Shown piece after piece: positions 6,633 to 37,467 of a DNA stretch of 59,484 bases (the first letter of the stretch is position 1; each line of letters opens with the position of its first letter). The translations under genes were made by a program, and so were the position numbers. Origin of the DNA: Alphaproteobacteria bacterium (GTDB taxonomy: Bacteria; Pseudomonadota; Alphaproteobacteria; SP197). The notes beneath the pieces were generated by a model. The model was not told where the DNA came from. It did no database searches and worked only from the letters and a program-made list of their open reading frames with translations. The stretch spans positions 1-59,484 of the forward strand of contig JANQGO010000221.1 of assembly GCA_028277285.1 (NCBI GenBank), given 5' to 3'.

Positions 6633-6926
6633 GCGCCCGCTCGAAACGCTTCGGCGATCCCGGCCAGAGAGCGCTGCTCTCCGACGACATGCTGGAAGCC
6701 GAACACTACAGCCTCACGATGGGTGGCTGCGGCACATCCGATGCCGCGCCGGGTGACTGTGCCGAGGGGCTTGTCGCGGAAGCCCGTGCAACGACGACAC
6801 AAGGCTATCTAACGCGTAAGGTCGAAAATGCATGGTCACGCTGATTGGCTGCGACGCTAAGATCGATCAGCCTGTCTCGGTCGTGTTGAGAGAGTTTCAG
6901 TCCGCTTTCATCGGGATGATCAATCC

Positions 6927-8093
6927 ATGACACTCGAGCTAACAGACACGCAGGCCATGATTGGCGATCTGACCGAGAAGGTCTGCGCTGATTTTGACGA
7001 TGCGTTCTGGCGCGAACGTGACGAGACCGGGACGTTCCCGGAGGCGTTCTATCGCGCGGTGGCCGCGGCCGGGCTCCTGGGTGTGGCGATGCCCGACCGG
7101 TTTGGCGGCTCGGGGCTCGGGATATCAGAAGCGGCCGTAATGATGGAGGCTATCGCCCGGTCCGGCGCCGGCATGGCCGGCGCATCGTCGGTCCACATGA
7201 ACATCTTCGGTCTTCAGCCCGTCGTGGTGTTCGGCACCGACGCGCAGAAGGCCCGCATGTTGCCGCCACTGATCACAGGGCAAGAGAAGGCGTGCTTCGC
7301 GGTCACCGAACCGGACGCAGGCCTGAACACCACGCAGATCAAGACGTTCGCCCGGAAGGAAGGCGATACCTATCTCCTCAAGGGCCAGAAAATCTGGATC
7401 TCGACAGCGCAGGTCGCGGACCGCGCCCTGATCCTGGCGCGCACGACACACCTGGACGATGTCCGGAAGAAGACCGAGGGTCTTAGTCTCTTCTATACGC
7501 GCCTCGACCGCGACCACGTGACGGCGACCGAGATCCCGAAGCTGGGCCGCCATGCGGTCGATTCCAATGTCGTCTTCTTCGATGACCTGCCGATCCATGA
7601 AGACGACCTGATCGGCAGAGAGGGCGACGGTTTTTCCATGATCCTCCACGGCCTCAATCCGGAGCGCATTCTCATCGCCGCCGAAGCCGTCGGTCTGGGA
7701 CGGGCGGCGCTCCATGCGGCAGCCGAATATGCGAAGCAGCGCGTCGTCTTCGACCGCGCGATCGGCATGAACCAGGGTATCCAGCATCCGCTGGCGCATT
7801 GCTGGATGAACCTTGAGGCCGCCTTCCTGATGACCCTGCAGGCCGCGGCCCTCTACGATGCCGGCAAGCCCTGCGGCGCCGAGGCGAACAGCGCGAAGTA
7901 CCTGGCGGCGGAGGCGTCTTTCAGGGCGTGCGAAACCGCGATCCAGACGCTGGGCGGCATGGGGTATGCGCGGGAATACAATGTCGAGCGGTATCTGCGT
8001 GAATCGCTGATCCCCCGCATTGCGCCGGTCAGCCCCCAGATGATCCTGAACTTCATAGCCGAGAAGATCCTCGGTCTGCCGCGGTCCTATTGA
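6927..8093 (+). CDS. Acyl-CoA dehydrogenase family protein
   Basis: CFAVTEPDAG, GQKIWIS, LNPERI and QTLGGMGYAREYNVERY. Confidence 0.92.
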   Translation: MTLELTDTQAMIGDLTEKVCADFDDAFWRERDETGTFPEAFYRAVAAAGLLGVAMPDRFGGSGLGISEAAVMMEAIARSGAGMAGASSVHMNIFGLQPVVVFGTDAQKARMLPPLITGQEKACFAVTEPDAGLNTTQIKTFARKEGDTYLLKGQKIWISTAQVADRALILARTTHLDDVRKKTEGLSLFYTRLDRDHVTATEIPKLGRHAVDSNVVFFDDLPIHEDDLIGREGDGFSMILHGLNPERILIAAEAVGLGRAALHAAAEYAKQRVVFDRAIGMNQGIQHPLAHCWMNLEAAFLMTLQAAALYDAGKPCGAEANSAKYLAAEASFRACETAIQTLGGMGYAREYNVERYLRESLIPRIAPVSPQMILNFIAEKILGLPRSY

Positions 8094-8176: not shown

Positions 8177-8539
8177 TTATGGCGTGGGCTTCTCCGGCTT
8201 TTCGCCGCCGTTCTCCCGGTTGGCGCCCGCTAGTTCATCGATGGCCATGCCTTTCCACAAGGGCACGCCGGTGCGGTAGGCGGCACGTGCGATCATGTGG
8301 GCGGCGACGGGGGCGGTCAGCAGCAGGAAGACGATGGCGGCGATGGCACGCGCAACGATGCCGGTATCGCCAAAGTGGACGGCGACGGCGACCAGGATCA
8401 GGCCGCAGCCCAGCGTTCCCGCCTTGGTCGAGGCGTGCATGCGGATCAGGACGTCCGGCAAGCGCAACACGCCAAGCGCTGCTGCGAAAGCGAAGAGGCC
8501 GCCCAAGACAACCAGCACCGATGTGATGATGTCGATCAT
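8177..8539 (-). CDS. mrpG: Mrp Na+/H+ antiporter subunit G
   Basis: LRLPD...RMHASTKAGTLG and TAPVAAH; last gene of the operon. Confidence 0.92.
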   Translation of the reverse strand: MIDIITSVLVVLGGLFAFAAALGVLRLPDVLIRMHASTKAGTLGCGLILVAVAVHFGDTGIVARAIAAIVFLLLTAPVAAHMIARAAYRTGVPLWKGMAIDELAGANRENGGEKPEKPTP

Positions 8540-8850
8540 CGCTGTTCGCCCGCGTGGTCGGGAGGCGTGTCCTCGCGGAAGCGTCGTCGTTCGGCGAAGC
8601 GGGCGAAGGCGACCGTGGCGAGAAACGCGATCAGGGCGAGCGCAATGGCGACGTCGAGATAGGCGGGTTCGCCCGACGCAATCGCGAAGAGCGCGCTGAA
8701 CGCCACCGCCAGGACGGTCACCAGGTCAAGCGCGACGACACGATCGGGCAGGCTGGGCCCGCGCGCCAGACGCAGGACCGCCAGCACGATCGCGGAGATC
8801 AGAAGGGCAAAGGCGATATCTGTTGCCGTGGTCAGAATGGGCGAGGTCAT
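8536..8850 (-). CDS. mrpF: Mrp antiporter subunit F
   Basis: RLARGPSLPDRVVALD and three TM helices. Confidence 0.92.
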   Translation of the reverse strand: MTSPILTTATDIAFALLISAIVLAVLRLARGPSLPDRVVALDLVTVLAVAFSALFAIASGEPAYLDVAIALALIAFLATVAFARFAERRRFREDTPPDHAGEQR

Positions 8851-8855
8851 GATGT

Positions 8856-9329
8856 CTACTCCAGGGCCTCCAGCACACGCCGCTCGATGCCTTGCTTGAG
8901 CTCGTCACGCAGGGCTTGCGGGTCATCGACGAACATGGCGTGGACATAGATGGTCTTGCAGTCCGGTGAGATGTCCAGGCACAGGCTTCCGGGCGTCAGG
9001 GATATCAGGTTCGCGATCATCAGGATTTCGCCGTCCCGCGTGGCGTCGAGCGGTAGCGCGATGATGCCTGGCCGGCTTCGATGAGACGGTGTCAGGACGT
9101 CCCACACCACGCGCAAGCTGGAGACGAAAAGCTCATAGACGAAAAAGAGGGCAAGCCGGATGACCCGCCACACACGTTCGAAATAGCCGGTTTCACCGAA
9201 CAACGGCCGGGCAACCCAAAGCGCGAGATAACCGACGACATAGCCGATGACCAGATTGGACAGCGTGAAGCTGCCGGTGAGTGCCGCCCACCCAAGCGCA
9301 AGCGCGGCATTCAGCGCGAAGAGGTTCAT
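8856..9329 (-). CDS. mrpE: Mrp antiporter subunit E
   Basis: [10 protein letters not shown] and IYVHAM. Confidence 0.92.
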
Positions 9330-10828
9330 GATGCGCTCCCCAGCACAGCACGGACATACGCGTCGGGGTTCAGCAATTGGTCCGCGGCGCGTTCGGCGAA
9401 GGCAACGAACGGTTCGGGGAAGAAACCGATGACAAGTGTCAGCGTCGCAAGCGTGGCGATCGGCGCCAGCAGCCTGATACGGTCGCCGACGGTGAGCATG
9501 GAGAGTCGTGGCGACGCGCCGGCGGGAAGCGGCTTCCAGAACGCTTCAGCCCAGATTTTGGTCATCGAATAGACGGTCAGCAGCCCGACCACCAGGGCGG
9601 CGGCGGCGACGAGATAGGCGCCGATGTCCAGGCTCGCCTTGACCAGCAGAAACTTCGCCCAGAAACCGGAGAGCGGCGGAAAGCCGGCAAGCGACAAGGC
9701 GGGTATCAGGAACAGGAAGGCGAGCAGGGGGCTCGATTTGTAAAGGCCACCCATGCTGTCGAGATCGAACCCGTGCGTCAGCCGTTTGGCGACACCGCTG
9801 ACGAGAAACAGGTTGGCCTTCACGACAATGTGGTGAACCAGATAGAAGACGGCGCCGACCAGAGCAAGCGGCGTGAAGAGCGCCAGGCCAAGTATCATGT
9901 AGCCGATCTGACTGACGATGTGGAACGACAGGATCTTGCGGAACTCGCTTTGCGCCGCCGCGCCGAGGACGCCGGTGATCATGGTCAAGACGGCGACGAC
10001 CAGAAGCAGGTCGTGCGTGTAGTCGGTGTCGGTCGTGAACACCAGGGTGAACATGCGGATGAGCGCGTAGACGCCGACCTTGGTCAACAGGCCGGCAAAG
10101 ATCGCCGACACCGCCACGGGTGGCGTGTGATAGGACGCCGGCAGCCAAAAGAACAGCGGGAACACCGCGGCCTTGATGCCGAACGCCACAAGGAACAGAA
10201 CGGCGATGACGGTGACCAGACCCTGGTTCTCGACCGTGCCGATGGCGCCGTGCAGATCGGCCAGGTTCAGCGTGCCGGTGATGCCGTAGAGCAGGCCGAT
10301 ACCGGTCAGGAACATGGCGGTCGATACCAGGTTGAGCACGACATACTTGATGCCGCCGTCAAGCTGCGCCTTGTCGCCACCAAGCACCAGCAGGCCGAAC
10401 GAGGCGATCAGCATCACCTCGAACCAGACATAGAGGTTGAAAAGGTCGCCGGTCACGAACGCGCCGCAGACGCCGGCCAGCAAGACCTGAAACAGCGCGT
10501 GATAGCCGAGCGCTTCGCGCCGGGTGTCGATATCGGCCAGCGCATAAACCGCGACGGCGAGCCCGGTGATCGCGGTGATCAGGACCATCACCGCGCTCAA
10601 AAGATCGGCCACCAGGGTGATGCCGAACGGCGCCGGCCAGTTGCCCATTTGCGCGGCGATAACCCCGTCCTGCCAGACGACGATGAAGAGCGCAATCGCC
10701 GCGACCAAGAGCGCCAAACAGCCGCCGATGCTGAGCCAGCGCCCCGCCGCACCCCGGTCGCGGAACAGGAAGGCGAGAACAGCGGTCGCCAGCGGCAGCA
10801 TGATGGGCAGCGCGAGAAGCCAGCTCAT
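9326..10828 (-). CDS. mrpD: Mrp antiporter subunit D
   Basis: [32 protein letters not shown] and [13 protein letters not shown]. Confidence 0.93.
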
Positions 10829-11199
10829 TGGCCTTCTTCCTGCTTCTCGGACTTCGGCTCGGCGACCCGCATGTTGTCGCCGTCCAAAGTGCCGAGTGCG
10901 CTATAGCCGCGATAGACCAGCACCAGAGCGAAGGCGAGCAGGCCGAAGCCAATGACGATGGCGGTCAGGACCAAGGCCTGGGGCAGCGCGTTGGCGACGA
11001 TCTCGGGCGGTGCCGAAAGGCCTTCGGGTACAAGAGGCGGCACCCGCGGTGTCAGACGTCCGGCGGCGAAGATGGTCAGGTTGGCGGCGTTGCTGAGCAG
11101 CACCAGCCCGAACAAGAACCGCAAGACGTTGCGGGCGAGCATCAGGTAGACACTGGCCGCCACCAGTATGCCGACCAGGAGCGCGAGCGTCGCTTCCAT
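10825..11199 (-). CDS. mrpC: Mrp antiporter subunit C
   Basis: MEATLALL start at 11199 and [14 protein letters not shown]. The track ORF is over-extended upstream. Confidence 0.9.
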
Positions 11200-11201
11200 G
11201 G

Positions 11202-11624
11202 TCAGGCCTCCTCCTCGAGCGCCAGAACCAGCGTCAGCACGGCGCCGATGACGGCGAGGTAGACACCGATGTCGAACAGCAGGACCGTGCTGAGCGCGAA
11301 ACCCTTGGCGCCATCGCTGCCATCGGTCAGGAACCACCATTGTCCGGTGAACAGCGGTTCGCCGGTCAGTGCGGGAACCAGGCCAGCGACAATGGCCAGA
11401 CCAAGTCCGACCATGGCGATTACGCGTGGATCGGCGCGCAGCGCGCGCCGGGCCGAACCGGCGCCGTGTGCGATGCCATAGAGAATAAAGCCGATCGACG
11501 CGATCAGACCGCCGATGAACCCGCCGCCGGGCTCGTTGTGGCCGCGCAACAGCATGTAGACGGAAAACAGCAGCATCAGCGCGACAAGCACGCGCGTCGC
11601 CGTGTTTAGGATCAGCGAATTCAT
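11202..11624 (-). CDS. mrpB: Mrp antiporter subunit B
   Basis: [14 protein letters not shown] and FDIGVYL. Confidence 0.92.
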
Positions 11625-13921
11625 CGTGTGCTCTTTGCCCGCACGCCGCGTAGCAGCGCAAAGGCGCCCAGCGCGGCGACGGCGACAACAACGACTTCGC
11701 CGAACGTGTCGAGCGCACGGAAGTCGACCAGGATGACGTTGACGATGTTGCGGCCATAGGCTTCGGGCACGCTGGCCGCTTCGTAGTAGTCGGTGACCGA
11801 CCGGTCGAGCGGGCCTTGGGTAACGGCGAGCAGGGTCAGCGTCACGACGCCGCCGACCACGAGCGCCAGGGCGCCGTCTTTCCAGCGTCGGTGTTTCAGA
11901 ACATCACGCTCAAGCCGCGGCAGGCGCAACATGGCGACGGCGACCAGGACGACAACCAGTGTCTCCACCAGGAGCTGCGTCATCGCCACATCCGGCGCAC
12001 CGAACATGACGAAGAAGAGCGCAACGCCGATACCGACGATACCGAGCGCGCAGATCGCGGTAAGGCGCGACCGGGCGAACGCCGCCATGATGGCGCCGGT
12101 CGCGATGAGGACGACGACAGCGCCGTGCTTGAACAGGATGTCCGGCCATGCGGTCGGCCAGCGCACGGCGCCGGTGACGACAAGGGTGACGCCGACGGCG
12201 AGCGCAAAACTGGCGAAGATCACAAACAGGTAGTGGCGCAGGACACCATGCTGCAGCAGCCGTGTCTGACCGCTAGCGACAAGCTTCAGGCCGTCGAGGA
12301 CGCCGTCCCATGCCTGGTCTGCGCTGAACGGCAGGGCCGCTTCAAGACGAATCAGAAGGGCGCGCAGTTTTTGATGGAAGACATAGATCAAGATGCCGCC
12401 GGCAAACGTCAGCAGGCTCAAGAGAAGCGGCAGATTAACGCCGTGCCAGAGCTTCAACTGGATGGTTTCGGGTTTACCGAGAACGGCGATGACCGCGGGC
12501 TGCACGAGGGCCTCGGCAATCACCGCGGGCGCCAGGCCGAATGTCAGGCCGAGAAGGGCCAAAAGCAGCGGCCCGACCCACATCCGGAACGGCGGATCAT
12601 GGGGCGTTTGGTCCGTCGGCATCCTGGTGCCGAAGAACGGCCTGAGCGCGACGATACCCGCCAGGGCGACCATCAGCATATTGGCGGCGACAGCCGCGGT
12701 GGCGACGAACGCGGGCTCGGCAGCAATGGCAAGCGCGCCTTCGTACTTCAGTTCCTTGCCGATGAATCCCAGAAACGGTGGGAAGCCGGCCATGGAAAGC
12801 GCGGCGGCCACGGCGGCAACGGCCGTGATCGGCATCAGCGGGCCCAGGCCGCGCAGCCTGTCGGTTTCGCGCGTGCCGGTCTCATGATCGATGACGCCGA
12901 CAACAAGGAATAGGGATGCCTTGTAAAGCGAATGGACGATCAGAAACGTCATGGCGGCGGCAACGGCGACCGTCGCCTCGGAACCCAGAAACATGGTGAG
13001 GGTGCCGAGCGCCATGACTGTCGTATAGGCAAGCGACAGTTTCAGATCGGTCTGGCGTAACGCGATGACCGACGCGATGACCGCCGTGACGGCGCCGACG
13101 ATGGTCAACGTCCAGATCCACGCGTCCGTGCCGCTCATCGCCGGATGCATGCGCGCCAGGAGGTAGATGCCGGCCTTGACCATGGTCGCGGAGTGCAGAT
13201 AGGCGCTGACCGGCGTCGGCGCGGCCATGGCGTTGGGCAACCAGAAGTGAAACGGGAACTGGGCCGACTTGGTAAAGGCGCCGGCCAGGATCAGGACCAG
13301 GATCGGCAGATAGAGATCGTGGGCGCGGATCGCATCGCCCATGGTCAGGATCTCGGAGAGCTCAAAGCTGCCCGCCGCGTTGCCCAGCAGGATGAAGCCG
13401 GCCAGGAGCGCCAGGCCGCCGGCGCCGGTCAACAGCAGGGCCTGCAGGGCGGCGCGCCGCGCCTTGGCCGACGCATGGTCGAACCCGATCAGCAGATAGG
13501 ACGCGACCGTGGTGAGCTCCCAGAACACAAACAGCGTGATCAGGTTGTCGGCCAGCACCAGGCCGAGCATCGCGACCATGAACAGCAGAAGATAAAGGAC
13601 GAAGCGGCCGAACTGGGCGTGGCCGGCCATATAGGCGCCGGCATAGAGCGCAACGAGCGTTCCGATCCCGCTGATCAGAAGCGCAAAGGTCAGGCTAAGG
13701 CCATCGACCAGAAAGGATAAGTTGACGCCTAGGCTGGGGACCCATTCATAGGCAACACGGATCGTGCCGCCGTCCGCGATCGTCGGCAGGCATGCCGCAA
13801 ACACGGCCGTCAGCACGGCCGGCGGAAGCGCCGCAAGCCAACCGAGTACGGTGCCCTTCGGCGCCGTGTCTGGTCGGCCGGCCTCTTGGTGCCGGTCGAT
13901 ATGCGACTCGCTGTTGGTCAT
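11621..13921 (-). CDS. mrpA: Mrp antiporter subunit A (separate from B; group 1 layout)
   Basis: [41 protein letters not shown] and [15 protein letters not shown]. Confidence 0.94.
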
Positions 13922-14155
13922 GCCTGTTGGCAGTCTTACTCAGTATGATGGCTGGTTGACAACGGGGAGGCGACGCCTTGGCATCGGTCGCGACGCCGGC
14001 GAGCGGCAGCGCGCTCGTGGACGAGCATAGCATACATTGCCGAAGCGCGGCGCCCCCGCCGCTAAGCGGAAGACGCCGCACCCCGCGGCGATCGGCCATG
14101 TACCGGAGGGAATGCACGGTTTCCCGTCAGGGCTGGGTCGGTACCGTTTGGTCGA

Positions 14156-14374
14156 TCACGCGTTGAGGTGTCCGGCTTGCGCGGGAGGCCTGAACAGAAT
14201 GGCGCCCATCAGCCTTTCCCACGCATCCATCTCGTCCTTGATCGCCAGTTTCTCGCGCTTCAACCGCTGCAGAACCATGGCGTCGGGCATCGGCCGATCG
14301 TGCTCGGCAGCGATCTGATCTTCGATGGCGCCATGGCGTTGTTTCAGAACGTTGTAGCGGGTGGTGGTGGACAT
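14156..14374 (-). CDS. DUF465/YdcH-family small coiled-coil protein
   Basis: LKQRHGAIEDQI...RPMPD...LQRLKREKLAIKDEM; AGGAG/AGGA upstream of ATG 14374. Confidence 0.8.
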   Translation of the reverse strand: MSTTTRYNVLKQRHGAIEDQIAAEHDRPMPDAMVLQRLKREKLAIKDEMDAWERLMGAILFRPPAQAGHLNA

Positions 14375-14528
14375 TGCCGGTTTCCTATCTCCTGGGTTGC
14401 GAGGCGGTCGCGCGCAGCCGGACAGCGGAACCAAGCTGGTGATCGACGAGGACGGTCAGCTGTGTCTCGCTTCGCTGCAAGCAATGCCTGCTGGCGATCT
14501 CTATGATGCAAATGCTGCCTCTGGCATG

Positions 14529-14575
14529 ATTGTTCCAATCATGATACCTGGATAGTTTGATAGGAAAAAACTATC
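14529..14575 (-). promoter_or_regulatory. Putative LysR (OxyR-like) operator, copy 1, upstream of DUF465-mrp
   Basis: ATTGTTCCAATC-N18-GATAG-N7-CTATC. It contains a perfect ATAG-N7-CTAT, and a second copy with the same spacing lies at 16116-16162. Confidence 0.65.
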
Positions 14576-14775
14576 ACGCGCCGATGTGTGTCAGGCCGGC
14601 GCTCTGCCTGCTCCGCCGGGCTGGGGCTGCGATAGTCATGTTCGATGACACGGTGCCACGATTCCAATTGGCGCGGCCTGCGATGGCGGACCATCTCAAC
14701 TCAAATCGGGGCACCGGCATGTCTGGGACGCTCTCGGCTTAGAGAAACAACACGCCACGTGGAGGCAGCACGATC

Positions 14776-14988
14776 ATGGAAGACCACACCGCTCTTTTGT
14801 CCCCAAGAGACGAGCGCGAACGGCGGGTTCTTGAGGCCGAGAGCGAATTCTATGACTGTGCGGCGCGCTATGGGTTCGATTCCGGCGAGGCGCTGGCGGC
14901 CGAAATCCTCTGGCGTCAACGACGGCGCGCTTTCCTCTACCCCGGCGTGCAGTTTCCCCGACCAACATATCCTACTCGACGACCGTGA
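14776..14988 (+). CDS. Small hypothetical protein (70 aa)
   Basis: GGAGG 10 nt before the ATG; fills the intergenic space without overlapping other genes. No family recognised. Confidence 0.4.
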   Translation: MEDHTALLSPRDERERRVLEAESEFYDCAARYGFDSGEALAAEILWRQRRRAFLYPGVQFPRPTYPTRRP

Positions 14989-15013
14989 CGGCTGGCGGCG
15001 AACGCCATGCCGG

Positions 15014-16015
15014 TCATGAGGCGGTGTTAGCATAAGCACCATAGGCGGTCGTCGTGGTATCAAGCTGCACGGGCGACACGAAGCCCGGCGGCTTTACGGC
15101 GAGCACCGAACACGCGACCTGGTTGAGAATGGTCTCCGCAGTGTTGCCGATAATCAAACCTTGGATACCGGTTCGCGCAACCGTCCCCATGACAATCAAC
15201 TCGACCCGTTTGCGTTCGGCAAACTCCGGCACGACTTTGCGTGCGAGCCCCTTGCTCAAATGCACCTGTCGCCGGCCGTCCGTATCGGGGAAGCCAAGCA
15301 GCAACTGGTCGAGCTGGGCAGCGCTTCGCCTGCGCTTCTCTTCGACCAGCAAGTCCACCTCATCCGGCGCGACGCGCGCGAAACCGCTGTGGCGCAGCAT
15401 ATCCTCGCCGTCCAGGTTCCAGACATGGATGACATGCAGCTCGCTCTGATCGATCCGTGACAGCGATGTCGCCAGCTCCATGATCGTTGTGTTGAGCGCG
15501 TCTCTCTGTTCGTCCTCCGGATCGGGGTCGACGGCGGCGAGGATGCGGGCATAGTGGTGACGGTCGTCGCGCCGCATGAGCCAGACGGGGCAGGGGCATT
15601 TCCGCAGCAGATGCAGGTCGGTGCCGGCAAAGAACAGCGAGCCCGCCTCCCACTCGCCCGCGGCGCCTTTGATCACGAGGTCATGGCCATCGCGCAGGAC
15701 CTTGCTGATGACTTCGACAAACGGGATTCCCTGCACAACCACTTCGGAGGTCGCCACGCCGGCCTCGTTGATCGTCTCGGCGATGCGGCCGACATGGGCG
15801 CGGTGAAACTCCTGCACTTCGTATTCGACGTCATGTTCCTGCACACCGCGCACGGCGCGGAACAGTTTCCCGAGTTCGCCGGGTGCGGTTTCGATCACGT
15901 CGATCAGAGTAAGTTGGGCATCGTTCGCCTTGGCCAGTGTTATGGCGCGCGCAACGGCGGTCTTGTTGATGCTGCGGATATCGCACACCAACAGAATACT
16001 CCGGAACCTCTTCAT
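15014..16015 (-). CDS. Universal stress protein, tandem Usp domains (UspE-like)
   Basis: DLVIKG...TDLHLLRKCPCPVW and LIVMGTVARTGIQGLIIGNTAETILNQVACSVLAVKP. Confidence 0.92.
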   Translation of the reverse strand: MKRFRSILLVCDIRSINKTAVARAITLAKANDAQLTLIDVIETAPGELGKLFRAVRGVQEHDVEYEVQEFHRAHVGRIAETINEAGVATSEVVVQGIPFVEVISKVLRDGHDLVIKGAAGEWEAGSLFFAGTDLHLLRKCPCPVWLMRRDDRHHYARILAAVDPDPEDEQRDALNTTIMELATSLSRIDQSELHVIHVWNLDGEDMLRHSGFARVAPDEVDLLVEEKRRRSAAQLDQLLLGFPDTDGRRQVHLSKGLARKVVPEFAERKRVELIVMGTVARTGIQGLIIGNTAETILNQVACSVLAVKPPGFVSPVQLDTTTTAYGAYANTAS

Positions 16016-16115
16016 GCCTCGGCCCTACACATGCGTGATCACAGTTGATCATGGCCGGCGGCGGCGCGGACGCACGGCGGCCGGCGATGTGATGGGACAT
16101 GGGCTTGAAAACCTT

Positions 16116-16162
16116 ATTGCTCCAATCGAAGTTTATGGGGGTTTCGATAGTTTCCACCATTC
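16116..16162 (-). promoter_or_regulatory. Putative LysR (OxyR-like) operator, copy 2, between usp and the regulator
   Basis: ATTGCTCCAATC-N18-GATAG-N7-CATTC, with the same spacing as copy 1, in the divergent usp/lysR gap. Confidence 0.6.
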
Positions 16163-16193
16163 AAAGACCCCGGACGTTTCAGGAGTGCCCGCC

Positions 16194-17114
16194 GTGCCAA
16201 CCTTGCAGCAGCTTCGTTATCTGGTCGCCGTTGCCGACACGCTTCACTTTCGCCGCGCCGCGGAATTGACCCATGTCACGCAGCCAACGTTGAGCGGCCA
16301 GCTTCGCGAACTCGAGAACAAGCTCGGCGTTCAATTGGTCGAGCGCAGCCGCGCCAAGGTCATCCTGACACCGGTTGGCGCAGAGATTGCGGCGCGCGGA
16401 CGAACCGTCCTGCGTGACGTGCAGGACATCGTCGAATTGGCCGCGCACGGTCATAGCCTGCTCGACGGGACGATACGGGTCGGTGTCATACAGTCTCTTG
16501 GTCCCTACCTTCTGCCGCACATCTTGCCGGAGCTGCATCAAAGCTATCCCAACCTTAAGCTCTATGTTCGCGAAGGCATGCCGCAGACATTGTTGGGCGG
16601 CATCGACGACGGCAGCTTCGATCTGTTGTTCTTCCCGCTGCCGGTCAAAGGAGCGGATCTGCACACGACGCGGCTGTTTCGCGAGCCCCTTTGGATCGTG
16701 ATGCCGTCGGATCATCACCTGGCGAAAAAGAAGACGATCGATCGATCGGACCTGAAGGACGAGACCGTGCTGACGCTGGAGCGCGGACACCGGCTTCACG
16801 ACCAGGTACAGGCGCTTTGCGAGCAGTATCGCGCGAAACTCTCGTTGGATTACGAGGGCACGAGCCTCGATACGTTGCGCCAGATGGTCGCCATGGGCAT
16901 GGGGCTGTCGTTTTTGCCGGCGCTCTATGTGCTATCGGAAGTCTTGCAGGATGATCAGGTCGTCGTGCGCCAACTGCGCAGCCGCGCACCATCGCGCATG
17001 ATCGGCATGGTGTGGCGCCGGCATTCGGCGCGCCAGGACGAGTTCGTCACGCTTGCGGAGCATGTGCGCGGTATCATGAAGAAACGTGTTCCCGACCTGA
17101 CAATCGTCTCGTGA
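16194..17114 (+). CDS. OxyR-like LysR transcriptional regulator lacking the peroxidatic Cys
   Basis: TLQQLRYLVAVADTLHFRRAAE..HVTQPTLSGQ and TSLDTLRQMVAMGMG. GHRLHDQ replaces OxyR GHCLRDQ. GTG start after AGGAG. Confidence 0.88.
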   Translation: MPTLQQLRYLVAVADTLHFRRAAELTHVTQPTLSGQLRELENKLGVQLVERSRAKVILTPVGAEIAARGRTVLRDVQDIVELAAHGHSLLDGTIRVGVIQSLGPYLLPHILPELHQSYPNLKLYVREGMPQTLLGGIDDGSFDLLFFPLPVKGADLHTTRLFREPLWIVMPSDHHLAKKKTIDRSDLKDETVLTLERGHRLHDQVQALCEQYRAKLSLDYEGTSLDTLRQMVAMGMGLSFLPALYVLSEVLQDDQVVVRQLRSRAPSRMIGMVWRRHSARQDEFVTLAEHVRGIMKKRVPDLTIVS

Positions 17115-17292
17115 CGCTGCGCCGTTTCCTTCCCGCTTTTGTCGATAACCCCGCCGGTCAGCTTCTTTGCGACCCATGGTATTCGCTGGCGTTCGTTGGT
17201 GCCGGGCCGCCTGCGGTCAAGTGTTGGGGTGGCCCGGCAGTGCTTGCCGTTCCAACTCGCAACGACATCGTTCGACGCCGTTTGCGTTTCGA

Positions 17293-19023
17293 TCACCGAC
17301 CGATGGCGTAGGCGTCCCTTCGCGGATCGGCGCCGCCGGTGAGCAGGCCGGTCTCGGGGTCGACCGTGATCGCGGACATGACGCCCATGTCCATGGGTTC
17401 CCAGTCTTCGACCCGGCGAACATCGTGTCCCCGGTCCGCGAGCTCATCGGTCACCGCGGTCGCGATCCGGCTTTCGACGTGGAGACGGCCCGGCAGATAA
17501 TCGTGAGGCCAAAACGAGTCGGGAAAACTCCAGGTCGTGAACCGTGGCGCCTCGATAGCGGCTTGCGCGTCCATGCCGAACACAGCGATGTTCAGGAAGG
17601 TCTGGACCATGGCCTGGCACTGCGCATCGCCACCGGGACAACCGAACGGCATGAACATGGCGCCATCCTTGAAAGCGATAGCCGGATTGGGCGTGAGGCG
17701 TGGCCGCTTGCCAGGCTCGAGCTTTGACGCGTGGTTCTCGTCGAGCCAGGTCTGTGTGCCGCGGCCGGATAGGCTGAAACCGAGTTCGGGCACGATCGGC
17801 GCGCGCGCGTTGGCGTCGCTCGGCGTGGCCGAGAAGGCGTTCCCCCACTGGTCGACGACACATGTGTAGCTGGTGTCGTTTTCGCGCTCGCGAAAGCTCT
17901 GCCCAGAGCGGGGTTCGGGTCTGCCCCACGGTGTCATGTCGTTGATCAGCCCCGGGGCCGGCATCTCACCGAACGCACGCTGCATGTCGACGCGTTCACG
18001 GCGGCTGCGCGTGTATTCCGGGTTCATCAACGCGTCCATCGGCACGTCGACCAGATCGGGATCGCCAAAATAGTAGTCGCGATCGGAAAAGCTGAGATTG
18101 AGCGCCTCGGCCAGCAGATGGATGTAGTCCGCGCTGTTATGCCCCAGCGCGGCGAGGTCGTCGTGATCGAGCATTTGAAGGACTTGCGGCACCACCGGTC
18201 CCTGACACCACGGCCCGCAGGACAGAACCTCATAATCCCTGAAGGTGCCGCGCACATGGGGCTCTTCCTTGACCGAGAAGTCATGGAAGTCTTCCAGTCT
18301 GAGCAAACCGCCTTGTTCTTCGCTGTAGCGCGCCATCTCGCGAGCGATATCGCCGCGATAGAACTCGTCCCGGGCCGCTCGTATCGCGGCCTCGCGACCC
18401 TCTGCCGCATGCTTGCGCTCGACCTCGATCAACCGCTCGAAGGTGCGCGCAAGCGCCGGCTGAACGATGAGCGTGCCCGCTGGTGGCACCTCACCGTTGC
18501 GCAGAAAGATCTCCCGGTTGGCCGGCCAGCGGGCAATGGCATCCACTTCGCCCAGGAACTGATTGCGCACGACCGGTGAGAGTGGATAGCCGTCCCGTGC
18601 GATCTCCAGCGCCGGCGTCAGCACCTCTTCCAACGTCATGGTGCCGTAAAGCTGCAGTGCGGTAAGCCACGCATCGGGTGCCGCCGGCACGACCGCGCGG
18701 CGGACATCCAGGGGCAGCTCGCCCTCGCAGTTGTTCATGAAGAAATCGATGGTCGCCGCCTTCGGCCAGCGGCCGAGCCCACTGATGGTGGTCACGGCGC
18801 GGCGGTCGGCGAGGTAGATCATGATCGGCGCGACACCGCCGAAGTTCGTGTTGTCGGCGAGCACCACATTGATCACGACACCGGAAGCAACGCCGGCATC
18901 GACCGCATTGCCGCCTTGCTCCAGCAACCGGTAGCCCGCCGCCGCCGATAGCGGATGCCCTGAACTGATGACATGGTGCGTACCCATGACGGGCGGTCGA
19001 TGCGAACCATAGGTGGTTGTCAT
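17293..19023 (-). CDS. Gamma-glutamyltransferase family protein
   Basis: GGNAVDAG, cleavage site DTSYTCVVDQWGN, PGKRPR, PFGCPGGDAQ and GGADPRR; GGAGG upstream of ATG 19023. Confidence 0.9.
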   Translation of the reverse strand: MTTTYGSHRPPVMGTHHVISSGHPLSAAAGYRLLEQGGNAVDAGVASGVVINVVLADNTNFGGVAPIMIYLADRRAVTTISGLGRWPKAATIDFFMNNCEGELPLDVRRAVVPAAPDAWLTALQLYGTMTLEEVLTPALEIARDGYPLSPVVRNQFLGEVDAIARWPANREIFLRNGEVPPAGTLIVQPALARTFERLIEVERKHAAEGREAAIRAARDEFYRGDIAREMARYSEEQGGLLRLEDFHDFSVKEEPHVRGTFRDYEVLSCGPWCQGPVVPQVLQMLDHDDLAALGHNSADYIHLLAEALNLSFSDRDYYFGDPDLVDVPMDALMNPEYTRSRRERVDMQRAFGEMPAPGLINDMTPWGRPEPRSGQSFRERENDTSYTCVVDQWGNAFSATPSDANARAPIVPELGFSLSGRGTQTWLDENHASKLEPGKRPRLTPNPAIAFKDGAMFMPFGCPGGDAQCQAMVQTFLNIAVFGMDAQAAIEAPRFTTWSFPDSFWPHDYLPGRLHVESRIATAVTDELADRGHDVRRVEDWEPMDMGVMSAITVDPETGLLTGGADPRRDAYAIGR

Positions 19024-35313: not shown

Positions 35314-37467
35314 ATGACTTTTAGAAAGACGGGCTGCGCGTTTGCGACGGTCCTTATGGCGGTAACTTTTGCGTCGTTGGCCGTCGCCCAGACAGCCGAC
35401 GACGCGATGGTGACACAGGAAGAGGGGGCCGACGCTGGCGGTGCATCGTTGCCTATTCTTCTCAATCCCATCTCGGTGACCGCAACGCGTAATCCGATCG
35501 AGGCGTTCGCGTATCCGGGCATGGTCTCGGTCATCGGTAGAGAGGAAATCGAGACGCTGCAGCCGTCGACGCCGGACGACATTCTGAAGTGGGTGCCGAG
35601 CGTTCAGTTCGTTGGCGGGCCGAGGCGGACCGGCGAAGTGCCGGTTATCCGGGGCTTCTCGGGGCCCGACACCGTCATCTTGATCGATGGCGCGCGCCAG
35701 AATTTCGGTTCGGGTCATGACGGGCGGTTCTTCATCGATCCCAGCCTGATCCAGCAGGTCGAAGTGCTGCGCGGTCCGGCCTCGGCGCTCTACGGCAGCG
35801 GCGGCACGGGCGGTGTGATCGAGTTCAGGACACTGGACGCCGCCGACTTCCTGTCGGCCGGCGAAACCTATGGCGGCACCGTCTCCGGCGGCTTTCAGAC
35901 CGTCAACGACGAATGGGTCGGCACGTTGACCGCCTATACCGCGCCGACCGACCAGTTCGACATTCTTGGCTCCATCACCAAACGCGATTCCGGCAACATC
36001 AAGCTCGGCGACGGCAACACGCTGGCGAACACGGATGACGACATCATCGCCGGACTGGCGACCGGCGGTTTCAATCTTGCCGACCATCACCGCATCGAGG
36101 GGTCCTTCATCACCTTCCAGAACGATGCCCAAGAGCCCAATAACGGGCAGGGCGCGGGCGGCAGCTCCTCCGTCGACAAGGACATACGGTCGAGCACCTA
36201 TCAGGTCAGCTACGACTACAGCAATCCGATGGACAGTCTGCTTGACTTGGACGTCGTCGCCTACTTTACCGAAACACAGGCCGACGAACTCAGGCTCGAT
36301 GACCTGGGCATCGGTCCGACCGGCGAGCTTCTGAAACGCGATGTCGACACATACGGTTTTCGGGTCGACAACCGCACCAGTTTCGATACGTCAGAGGATG
36401 TCGCGAACCTCCTGACCTATGGTGTCGAGTTCTATCACGACAAGCAGTTCGGCGCGGCCGGTTCAGGGACCCGGGCCGGCGTGCCGAACGCCGAGGACTA
36501 TTTCTACGGCGTGTTCCTGCAGTCGGAGACCACGATCACGGAACCCTTCGGCGCTCTTCCGGGCGAGCTGCTTATCGTACCGGGCCTTCGCTATGACGAC
36601 TACGAGGTCACGAGTTCGCTTGCCGCCGACAACAGCGACAGCGAGTGGTCGCCGCGCCTGGGCGCGAGCTACTTGCCGAATGACTGGCTGATGGTGTTCG
36701 GCAGCTATTCGGAGGCGTTCCGCGCGCCGACTTTTGATGAACTCTTTTTGACGGGAACGCATTTCAACATCGTGATCCCCGGCTTCCCGACCATCACGAA
36801 CGCCTTCATCCCCAATCCGGAGCTCAAACCGCAACGCACGCGCACTTGGGAGTTCGGCGGCGGCTTGACGTTCGACGATGTTCTTAAGGAAGACGACGGC
36901 ATGTGGCTGAAAGGTTCCTACTATCGGACCAAGGCCAAGGATCTGATCAACCTCACGGTTAATCAGCCCGCCCCGTTCGTTGACTGCAACCCCTTCATCC
37001 CCGGCGCGTGTAACGGCACGTCGGAAGCCGACAATGTCGGCAACGCCAAGCTTTGGGGCACGGAGGTAGAAGGCGCCTATGAGAACGATCGCGTTCTCGT
37101 GTCCCTGGGGTTCTCGACGATCCGCGGTAAGGACGAGGACACCGGCGCCTATCTGGGAAACCTGCAGCCGGACACGTTCACCGTCATCACGGGCCTGAAG
37201 CTGCCGGAAGTCAACTCGATCGTCGGCTGGCGCATGCTCGCGGCCGACGGCTTCGACAAGGTCAACAACCCGGGCGAAGAGCGCGGCGGCTATGCGGTGC
37301 ATGACTTCTATGCGGCTTGGCAGCCGGCTGACGGCCCGCTCCAGGGTTTCCGCGTCGACGTCGGCGTCGATAACGCGTTCGACAAGTCTTACAGCAGAGT
37401 CTTCACAGGATCGGTGGAGGCAGGGCGCAACTACAAGGCCCTCGTCAGCTACTCGATGACCTGGTGA
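35314..37467 (+). CDS. TonB-dependent heme/hemoglobin receptor
   Basis: TonB-box region ISVTATR, plug motif EVLRGPASALYGSG, FRAP...H...NPEL motifs and a C-terminal Trp. Confidence 0.92.
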   Translation: MTFRKTGCAFATVLMAVTFASLAVAQTADDAMVTQEEGADAGGASLPILLNPISVTATRNPIEAFAYPGMVSVIGREEIETLQPSTPDDILKWVPSVQFVGGPRRTGEVPVIRGFSGPDTVILIDGARQNFGSGHDGRFFIDPSLIQQVEVLRGPASALYGSGGTGGVIEFRTLDAADFLSAGETYGGTVSGGFQTVNDEWVGTLTAYTAPTDQFDILGSITKRDSGNIKLGDGNTLANTDDDIIAGLATGGFNLADHHRIEGSFITFQNDAQEPNNGQGAGGSSSVDKDIRSSTYQVSYDYSNPMDSLLDLDVVAYFTETQADELRLDDLGIGPTGELLKRDVDTYGFRVDNRTSFDTSEDVANLLTYGVEFYHDKQFGAAGSGTRAGVPNAEDYFYGVFLQSETTITEPFGALPGELLIVPGLRYDDYEVTSSLAADNSDSEWSPRLGASYLPNDWLMVFGSYSEAFRAPTFDELFLTGTHFNIVIPGFPTITNAFIPNPELKPQRTRTWEFGGGLTFDDVLKEDDGMWLKGSYYRTKAKDLINLTVNQPAPFVDCNPFIPGACNGTSEADNVGNAKLWGTEVEGAYENDRVLVSLGFSTIRGKDEDTGAYLGNLQPDTFTVITGLKLPEVNSIVGWRMLAADGFDKVNNPGEERGGYAVHDFYAAWQPADGPLQGFRVDVGVDNAFDKSYSRVFTGSVEAGRNYKALVSYSMTW

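Follow-up and report, generated by a model that had tools for sequence, protein, structure and literature searches.

An OxyR relative without the peroxidatic cysteine, linked to Mrp antiporter genes and a conserved candidate operator in Alphaproteobacteria

A 59,484-nucleotide stretch of alphaproteobacterial DNA (contig JANQGO010000221.1 of assembly GCA_028277285.1; referred to here as the window) carries a gene for a LysR-type regulator, lysR, which diverges from a usp gene, a DUF465 gene and the operon mrpABCDEFG for an Mrp Na+/H+ antiporter (Table 1). The regulator descends from OxyR, has lost the peroxidatic Cys, and retains in related species both its linkage to mrp and a candidate operator. 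It most likely controls these ion-balance genes, and not peroxide defences, through two conserved operators and in response to a Na+ load or alkalinisation. Binding of the operators by the regulator, activation rather than repression of its targets, and the identity of the signal are put forward as predictions from the sequence.

The regulator has the domain composition of the LysR type (Pfam PF00126, E 1.5e-20, residues 4-62; PF03466, E 7.7e-51, residues 89-292). Its top NCBIfam model is OxyR (NF008361, 248.8 bits, positions 4-297 of 305), a score that lies under the equivalog cut-off of 329 bits, and the second-ranked family is GltC (170 bits). The closest solved structure, located by sequence with HMMER, is that of Pseudomonas aeruginosa OxyR (Protein Data Bank (PDB) entry 4x6g, E 7e-61, 38-40% identity). 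An AlphaFold2 model, for which 37 relatives were used (predicted local distance difference test 87.7), matches the same protein in Foldseek (4x6g_F, E 8e-32, template modelling (TM) score of 0.81). The model is also close to the regulatory domain of Escherichia coli OxyR in the reduced (1i69, TMt 0.92) and oxidised (1i6a, TMt 0.90) forms, a near-equal match that does not tell the two states apart. Because OxyR ranks first by family model, by solved relative and by fold, we conclude that the gene encodes a LysR-type regulator descended from the OxyR lineage.

An earlier, sequence-only reading of this DNA had described the protein as OxyR-like throughout, with Arg in place of the first Cys and a Cys nine residues later, and the translation and the NCBIfam and PDB matches bear this out. 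Positions 16779-16826 translate as ERGHRLHDQVQALCEQ, in which Arg200 (codon 16791-16793, cgg) occupies the position of the OxyR peroxidatic Cys and is followed, nine residues on, by Cys209 (codon 16818-16820; numbering from the GTG at 16194). When the protein is aligned to 4x6g by HMMER, Arg200 coincides with the C199D position of the 4x6g mutant, and Ser101 and Pro130 are placed opposite the Thr100- and Thr129-equivalents, respectively. The Thr100-, Thr129- and Cys199-equivalents are residues of the OxyR peroxide pocket.

The loss of the peroxidatic Cys extends throughout the clade. Among 5.8 billion proteins searched, at least 120 matched the window regulator, those listed having 66-100% identity. 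Residues were tabulated for 80 full-length rows, comprising 79 genome loci and the window; one locus (L060), with a stop at codon 105, was left out. Position 200, which corresponds to OxyR Cys199, is Arg in 70 rows, Lys in eight, His in one and Leu in one, and is Cys in none. Position 209 (OxyR Cys208) is Cys in 56, Ser in 13, Ala in nine and Val in two, and it is replaced in mrp-linked proteins of Marivita and Jannaschia as well; retention of the second Cys, as claimed earlier, is thus a property of the window protein and not of the clade. Position 199 is His in 79 rows, position 202 is His in 52, Tyr in 26 and Phe in two, position 130 is Pro in 55 and Ala in 22, and Arg126 and Arg268 are invariant or nearly so. 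With no Cys at position 200 and the second Cys in only 56 of the 80 rows, the Cys pair cannot be the sensing device of the clade, and the window regulator, judged by these residues, probably no longer senses peroxide through cysteines.

The same genome encodes a second OxyR-like protein (contig C18, 3089-3994, minus strand; locus L002) that possesses GHCLRDQ and the second Cys, which upholds the earlier description of the window regulator as an OxyR paralogue. This canonical protein likewise scores under the NF008361 cut-off (243.7 versus 329 bits). Since a genuine GHCLRDQ OxyR fails the cut-off too, the score alone is a weak test for alphaproteobacteria, and for those compared here the cut-off is too strict. 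The Cys-less protein occurs together with at least one GHC-type OxyR in all five other genomes tested (a Jannaschia, a Marivita, a Tateyamaria, a Denitrobaculum metagenome-assembled genome (MAG) and a Thalassobacter). The paralogue has GHC[LF]RD[QH] in four of the five; the Marivita genome has two readable Cys paralogues with GHCLQ[KR]H and one further match outside the pattern. On these comparisons, the window regulator is a paralogue and not the OxyR of the cell. Several of its relatives are named 'hydrogen peroxide-inducible genes activator' in public records (Pelagibius, Denitrobaculum and Kiloniellales MAGs), a label that is probably wrong and that would inflate the oxidative-stress capacity inferred for marine alphaproteobacterial genomes.

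The neighbours of the window regulator are usp, DUF465 and mrpABCDEFG, as first reported and as Pfam and NCBIfam corroborate, and no catalase or peroxiredoxin gene is found among them. Conservation of this linkage was assessed in a scan of one genome per species from GTDB, in which the best 80 of 558 relatives (55-80% identity) were taken and genes were placed by tblastn with the window proteins. The linkage expected of homologues on the earlier proposal is present: mrp adjoins the regulator in 57 of the 80 species-level loci, in five different gene orders. In 55 loci, mrpA lies divergently upstream, either directly (25 loci, gaps of 66-386 bp), with usp between (20), with usp and DUF465 between, as in the window (six), or with another gap (four). 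One locus has usp-mrpABCDEFG-lysR co-oriented (L053) and one has mrpD-G convergent at a contig end (L050). Of the loci without mrp, eight have an upstream flank shorter than 3 kb and are uninformative, and 15 have full flanks. The usp gene stands between lysR and mrpA in 26 loci, and two loci of the 'other gap' class (L109 and L110) have usp matches as well. In a third locus of that class (L071, 8153-9759), lysR and mrpA are separated by genes for a membrane protein of the Bax1-I/YccA family and for a protein with a fasciclin domain.

Where mrp is missing, its place is in some cases taken by another antiporter. Pfam annotation covered seven of the 15 full-flank loci without mrp, and the divergent neighbour is NhaA with an Sbt_1-family gene in L067, NhaA in L060 and a Na/Ca exchanger in L061; among the other eight, DUF465 genes are seen in L051, L056 and L070. 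No antioxidant gene recurs among the conserved neighbours in the 80 loci and their Pfam-annotated subset. The loci with mrp belong, as labelled by NCBI, to two orders, namely Rhodobacterales (11 from Jannaschia, 11 from Marivita, three from Tateyamaria, and others) and Rhodospirillales (Pelagibius, Denitrobaculum and Kiloniellaceae). The variety of gene orders and the exchange of Mrp for other cation/proton exchangers are, as we read these loci, a stronger argument than the counts.

A shared operator-like motif had been noted ahead of both leftward units, and the sites are located at 16146-16162 and 14559-14575. The proximal candidate operator is composed of a conserved ACATGGGCTTGAAA (16097-16110), a box ATTGCTCCAATCGAA (16116-16130) and GATAG-N7-CATTC (GATAGTTTCCACCATTC, 16146-16162), with a dyad ATCGAA-N12-TTCGAT spanning 16125-16148. 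The distal candidate comprises a box ATTGTTCCAATC (14529-14540), GATAG at 14551-14555 and the perfect palindrome GATAG-GAAAAAA-CTATC (GATAGGAAAAAACTATC, 14559-14575), which is the only ATAG-N7-CTAT in the window. Each of the two sites has the ATTGnnCCAATC box ahead of it, as direct reading of the sequence shows. The pattern GATAG-N7-C[AT][AT]TC has four matches in the window, the palindrome being counted on both strands, against 0.14 expected, and none of 100 shuffles reaches four. A further match (36909-36925, minus strand, GATAGTAGGAACCTTTC) lies within a 717-residue open reading frame (ORF) resembling a TonB-dependent receptor (35314-37467) and was taken as chance.

A three-element layout, of which the window has two full copies (16097-16162 and 14529-14576), was recovered upstream of lysR in 75 anchored loci. 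In order, it consists of GATAGG/ATGGG, then about 20 bp on TTGAyyGnnCAAATCGAA, and about 15 bp further TTGATAG-N7-CTATCA, which ends 10-50 bp before the lysR start codon; in the tightest loci, the operator wholly fills the gap of 66-150 bp. In most relatives ATAG-N7-CTAT lies 24-65 bp before the start codon and contains the T-N11-A expected of a LysR-type site. In the 140 bp that precede lysR, 44 of 79 loci have the strict form ATAG-N7-CTAT and 51 of 79 a relaxed form, set against four strict and 15 relaxed occurrences over 974,609 bp taken from these loci at distances beyond 3 kb. A site between usp and DUF465/mrpA, comparable to the distal site, is present in seven cases (G002, L039, L040, L042, L044, L045 and L047); in L041 it lies just beyond usp, and the contig ends before any DUF465 or mrpA. 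The pattern used found no distal-type site in L037. Sites also precede a usp paralogue (L047) and DUF465 genes (L056, L065 and L070), and none was found upstream of mrpA in two genomes whose Mrp operon lacks the regulator (G005 and G033; n = 2).

These arrangements suggest how the system might work. LysR-type regulators classically have a recognition site at about -65 and an activation site at about -35 of a divergent promoter, and repress their own gene. From the strong dyad beside lysR and the weaker boxes towards the divergent gene, we infer an autorepressing tetramer that would activate usp and DUF465-mrp. Like other LysR-type regulators, the tetramer would occupy a two-part operator of about 50-65 bp. 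The part closest to the lysR start codon is the strong dyad of T-N11-A form (ATAG-N7-CTAT); the ATTGnnCCAATCGAA box and the further GATAGG/ATGGG element are on the side of the divergent gene. Its own promoter would be repressed, and the leftward units activated when the signal is present. The two operators predict two target units in its own genome, usp and DUF465-mrpABCDEFG, and the targets here and in relatives would be cation/proton antiporters (Mrp, NhaA and Na/Ca exchanger) together with Usp and DUF465. Because the recurrent targets are antiporters, Usp and DUF465, and the hosts are marine, the input is most likely a cytoplasmic Na+ load or alkalinisation, giving the regulator a role like that of NhaR.

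Several observations weigh against this account. Fifteen of the 80 loci carry no mrp despite an upstream flank of at least 4.4 kb, and some divergent neighbours are unrelated to ion transport: an alpha/beta hydrolase (L072), a fasciclin (L043) and major facilitator superfamily transporters (L046 and L048; in L046 with a gene for isocitrate dehydrogenase in front). In one of the two loci with NhaA (L060), lysR has an in-frame stop at codon 105. The loci come from related species, so that the counts overstate independent support, and Mrp operons without this regulator exist (G005 and G033, with distant MrpA at 51-52%). The basic residue in the pocket argues against direct binding of Na+ there. 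Finally, the perfect GATAG-N7-CTATC is not enriched genome-wide, with three found against about 1.8 expected in the 5.26-Mb genome. The copies outside the window (C296:4371 and C457:334) were considered as targets and set aside because they coincide with the end or the interior of ORFs, which leaves a purely local predicted regulon in this genome. As regards L060 itself (6920-7834, in a MAG labelled Rickettsiales), the stop stands where the window protein has Tyr, and this lysR may be a pseudogene or an assembly error.

A wider form of the account takes in the whole Cys-less sister family of OxyR, marked by DYEGTSL, as a dedicated cytoplasmic ion or pH sensor that would switch on Mrp, NhaA and Ca/Na antiporters along with Usp and DUF465; we hold this extension only tentatively. 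An HMMER search of 1.84 billion representatives at 50% identity gave 94,774 matches at E <= 0.001, of which the best 150 were examined. The nearest of these are Cys-less, 46-52% identical, and have DYEGTSL in common, and OxyRs of the GHCLRDQ type start at rank 18. Among the 135 of 285-345 residues, 77 have a Cys at position 199 and 58 lack it. In a FastTree phylogeny (169 rows, midpoint-rooted, without outgroup), the Cys-less DYEGTSL group stands apart from the Cys199 GHCLRDQ group, with all sampled loci of the window's clade together within the former and one GHRLHDQ representative (P0130) at the base of the latter. Few columns separate the two groups (L166, Y220, G222, D226 and Y245), and no ligand could be deduced from them. 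A metagenome scan with 12 Cys-less representatives as seeds returned 80 loci, among which distant relatives of only 45-50% identity again diverge from mrpA (L140, L162 and L172) or from DUF465 (L181, L183, L187 and L191). In these relatives Leu/Met201, His202 and DYEGTSL persist, and positions 198-200 read D-Y-H, E-F-V, D-Y-A or similar.

Those same positions bear on the possibility that the regulator senses an anion or an inorganic-carbon metabolite such as bicarbonate through a basic pocket, with Na+ export coupled to Na+-dependent uptake as for NdhR/CcmR. In the close clade His199, Arg/Lys200 and Arg268 lie at the site of the OxyR peroxide pocket and Arg126 is invariant, the divergent operon of L067 pairs NhaA with a member of the Na+-dependent bicarbonate transporter superfamily (Sbt_1), and control of mnh and sbtA by NdhR has been described (PMC4390856). 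However, the distant mrp-linked relatives read D-Y-H, E-F-V or D-Y-A at 198-200, and the basic pocket is therefore not family-wide; Sbt_1 occurs in one of the seven Pfam-annotated loci without mrp; and the protein is far nearer OxyR (E 7e-61) than CcmR (5y2v, E 2e-24). We regard an anion signal as improbable, if the best placed of the competing explanations. The H-R-x-H pocket of the sequence-only reading accordingly holds for the close clade only, and even there position 202 varies among His, Tyr and Phe; of that interpretation, the comparisons support the regulon and the loss of peroxide sensing, but not the pocket or the signal.

Less probable still is that the protein remains a redox or peroxide sensor, with Cys209 or another Cys acting in a one-cysteine mechanism, as in the one-cysteine OxyRs, and with Mrp and Usp induced in oxidative stress. 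Cys209 is kept in the window protein and in 56 of the 80 clade rows. We take PA1054-PA1059 to be the Mrp/Sha operon of Pseudomonas, an assignment for which a literature search found no confirmation. The candidate operator is of the OxyR type (ATAG-N7-CTAT), and the six-gene PA1054 operon is among those bound by OxyR in a table of chromatin immunoprecipitation on microarray (ChIP-chip) results (PMC3378865). Against these points, position 200 is Cys in no clade row, 24 of the 80 rows have Ser, Ala or Val instead of Cys209, mrp-linked proteins of Marivita and Jannaschia among them, a Cys-bearing OxyR-type paralogue coexists in six of six genomes examined, and the conserved neighbours include no antioxidant gene. 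Redox sensing through Cys209 appears unlikely on this evidence.

Among 40 relatives of the genome studied here, G002 has the whole cassette (LysR 92% and full-length MrpA 89% identical), and neither LysR nor MrpA of the cassette was found in G001, which belongs to the same genus and is 97% complete. Of the three genomes in the genus, G000 and G002 carry the lysR-usp-DUF465-mrp cassette and G001 did not yield it, and the nearest relatives of the regulator (about 80% identity) are labelled Pelagibius/Kiloniellales. This patchy spread suggests that the cassette was transferred or lost as a unit. That its genes merely travel together, with LysR constitutive or serving other genes and the repeated motif serving another factor, is the least probable explanation: the patchiness would fit a mobile unit and 15 full-flank loci lack mrp, but the linkage persists across at least five gene orders and where NhaA or a Na/Ca exchanger stands in for Mrp, and the operator tracks the regulator, was not found at two Mrp operons without it, and has the T-N11-A form and position typical of autoregulated divergent promoters of the LysR type.

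Table 1 Features of the window. Positions are those of the whole stretch; strand is given where assigned.
Feature	Positions	Strand	Basis
LysR-type regulator, 306 amino acids, GTG start	16194-17114	+	Pfam HTH_1 and LysR_substrate, NCBIfam, PDB sequence and fold matches, translation
Proximal candidate operator, usp/lysR divergent gap	16097-16162		Sequence, pattern count, same layout in 75 anchored relatives
Tandem Usp, UspE-like, 333 amino acids	15014-16015	-	Pfam Usp, two stretches; NCBIfam UspE 170.9 bits, under 227-bit cut-off
Terminator-like hairpin 3' of usp	14751-14772	-	Consensus scan only; 5 sites versus 1.9 expected in region, weak
Distal candidate operator before DUF465-mrp	14529-14576		Sequence and pattern count
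DUF465 small protein, 72 amino acids, ATG at 14374	14156-14374	-	Pfam PF04325, E 1.1e-11
mrpA	11621-13921	-	NCBIfam NF009287, 1028.5 bits, over 937-bit cut-off
mrpB	11202-11624	-	NF009163, 169 bits, over 148-bit cut-off
mrpC	10825-11199	-	NF009301, 185.4 bits, over 156-bit cut-off; start at ATG of MEATL... (ORF listing)
mrpD	9326-10828	-	NF009306, 597.4 bits, over 542-bit cut-off
mrpE	8856-9329	-	Pfam MNHE, E 4.8e-43; NF006519 164.6 bits, under 190-bit cut-off
mrpF	8536-8850	-	NF009243, 96.3 bits, over 95-bit cut-off
mrpG	8177-8539	-	NF009314, 139.4 bits, over 102-bit cut-off

The seven mrp genes constitute a group-1 operon of the Mrp (CPA3) type, with all seven Pfam families, separate A and B genes, and genes that abut or overlap. 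The DUF465 start codon is preceded by AGGA 9-12 nucleotides upstream. The hairpin that follows usp would fit transcription of usp and DUF465-mrp as two units here. Between usp and DUF465, which are 640 bp apart, a 70-residue ORF (14776-14988, plus strand) is probably not a gene, as it gives no blastn alignment with G002 although the flanking genes align. A search of 13800-17400 against Rfam in E-value mode gave no match, and a search for RNA sequencing runs with 13900-17200 listed none. Downstream of lysR, the window has an ORF resembling gamma-glutamyltransferase. In G002 (L117, 11670-12808), a perfect GATAG-N7-CTATC follows directly on the lysR stop codon and precedes genes for the a- and c-subunits of F0 ATP synthase (Pfam ATP-synt_A and ATP-synt_C), and a/c-like genes downstream of lysR were read by eye from the sequence of L055. 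In some species, the targets may thus extend to the F0 genes.

Little is understood of how bacteria perceive cytoplasmic Na+ or alkalinity and adjust their antiporters to it; for NhaR, the textbook case, the mechanism of sensing is not known to have been resolved. To our knowledge, regulators of proteobacterial mrp operons are essentially undescribed, and no published description of a Cys-less OxyR relative linked to Mrp was found in the literature covered, outside which most subscription journals lie. If the wider sensor reading of the sister family is true, proteobacterial Mrp operons would gain their first described dedicated regulator. The family offers a sequence-defined regulator, a defined candidate operator and culturable marine hosts, which makes the question directly testable, and it would represent the reuse of a well-studied redox-switch scaffold without the switch.

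In terms of known systems, we would describe the one in the window as a LysR-type regulator of an adjoining transporter operon, on the scaffold of OxyR without its switch. NhaR of E. coli is a Na+-responsive LysR-type activator of nhaA. The present family resembles it in placing a LysR-type regulator beside a Na+/H+ antiporter gene, which in L067 and L060 is NhaA itself, and differs in being divergent and in having the seven-gene Mrp complex as its main target. The window regulator matched 51 NCBIfam families, and the top 25 contain no NhaR model (25th, 65.4 bits; OxyR, 248.8 bits); by this comparison it is not an NhaR orthologue and is NhaR-like only in its inferred role. NdhR/CcmR of Synechocystis is a LysR-type regulator of mnh (Mrp-like), sbtA and ndh-I3 genes, and shares with the present system the control of an Mrp-like operon together with a Na+-dependent transporter (PMC4390856). 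It differs in belonging to another LysR subfamily (5y2v, E 2e-24 versus 7e-61 for OxyR) and in being a cyanobacterial repressor that responds to carbon metabolites.

OxyR of E. coli and P. aeruginosa is the closest comparison. The present family keeps His199, Ser/Thr101 and Arg268, at positions that align with residues lining the OxyR peroxide pocket. Its candidate operator, ATAG-N7-CTAT, is of the OxyR type, the dyad matching the ATAG-based, dyad-symmetric motif described for P. aeruginosa OxyR; in Table 1 of the ChIP-chip data, PA1054 appears as a six-gene operon annotated 'probable NADH dehydrogenase', and a motif of the ATAG type is given for it (PMC3378865). The family differs from OxyR in that the peroxidatic Cys is replaced by Arg or Lys and the second Cys is kept in only part of the clade, in that the residue aligned with P. 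aeruginosa OxyR Thr129 is Pro or Ala, and in that its neighbours are antiporter, Usp and DUF465 genes, not antioxidant genes. Should the PA1054 operon be Mrp/Sha, canonical OxyR would itself touch mrp, and the present family may have arisen as a subfunctionalised copy, with binding to the mrp promoter already a property of the ancestral OxyR.

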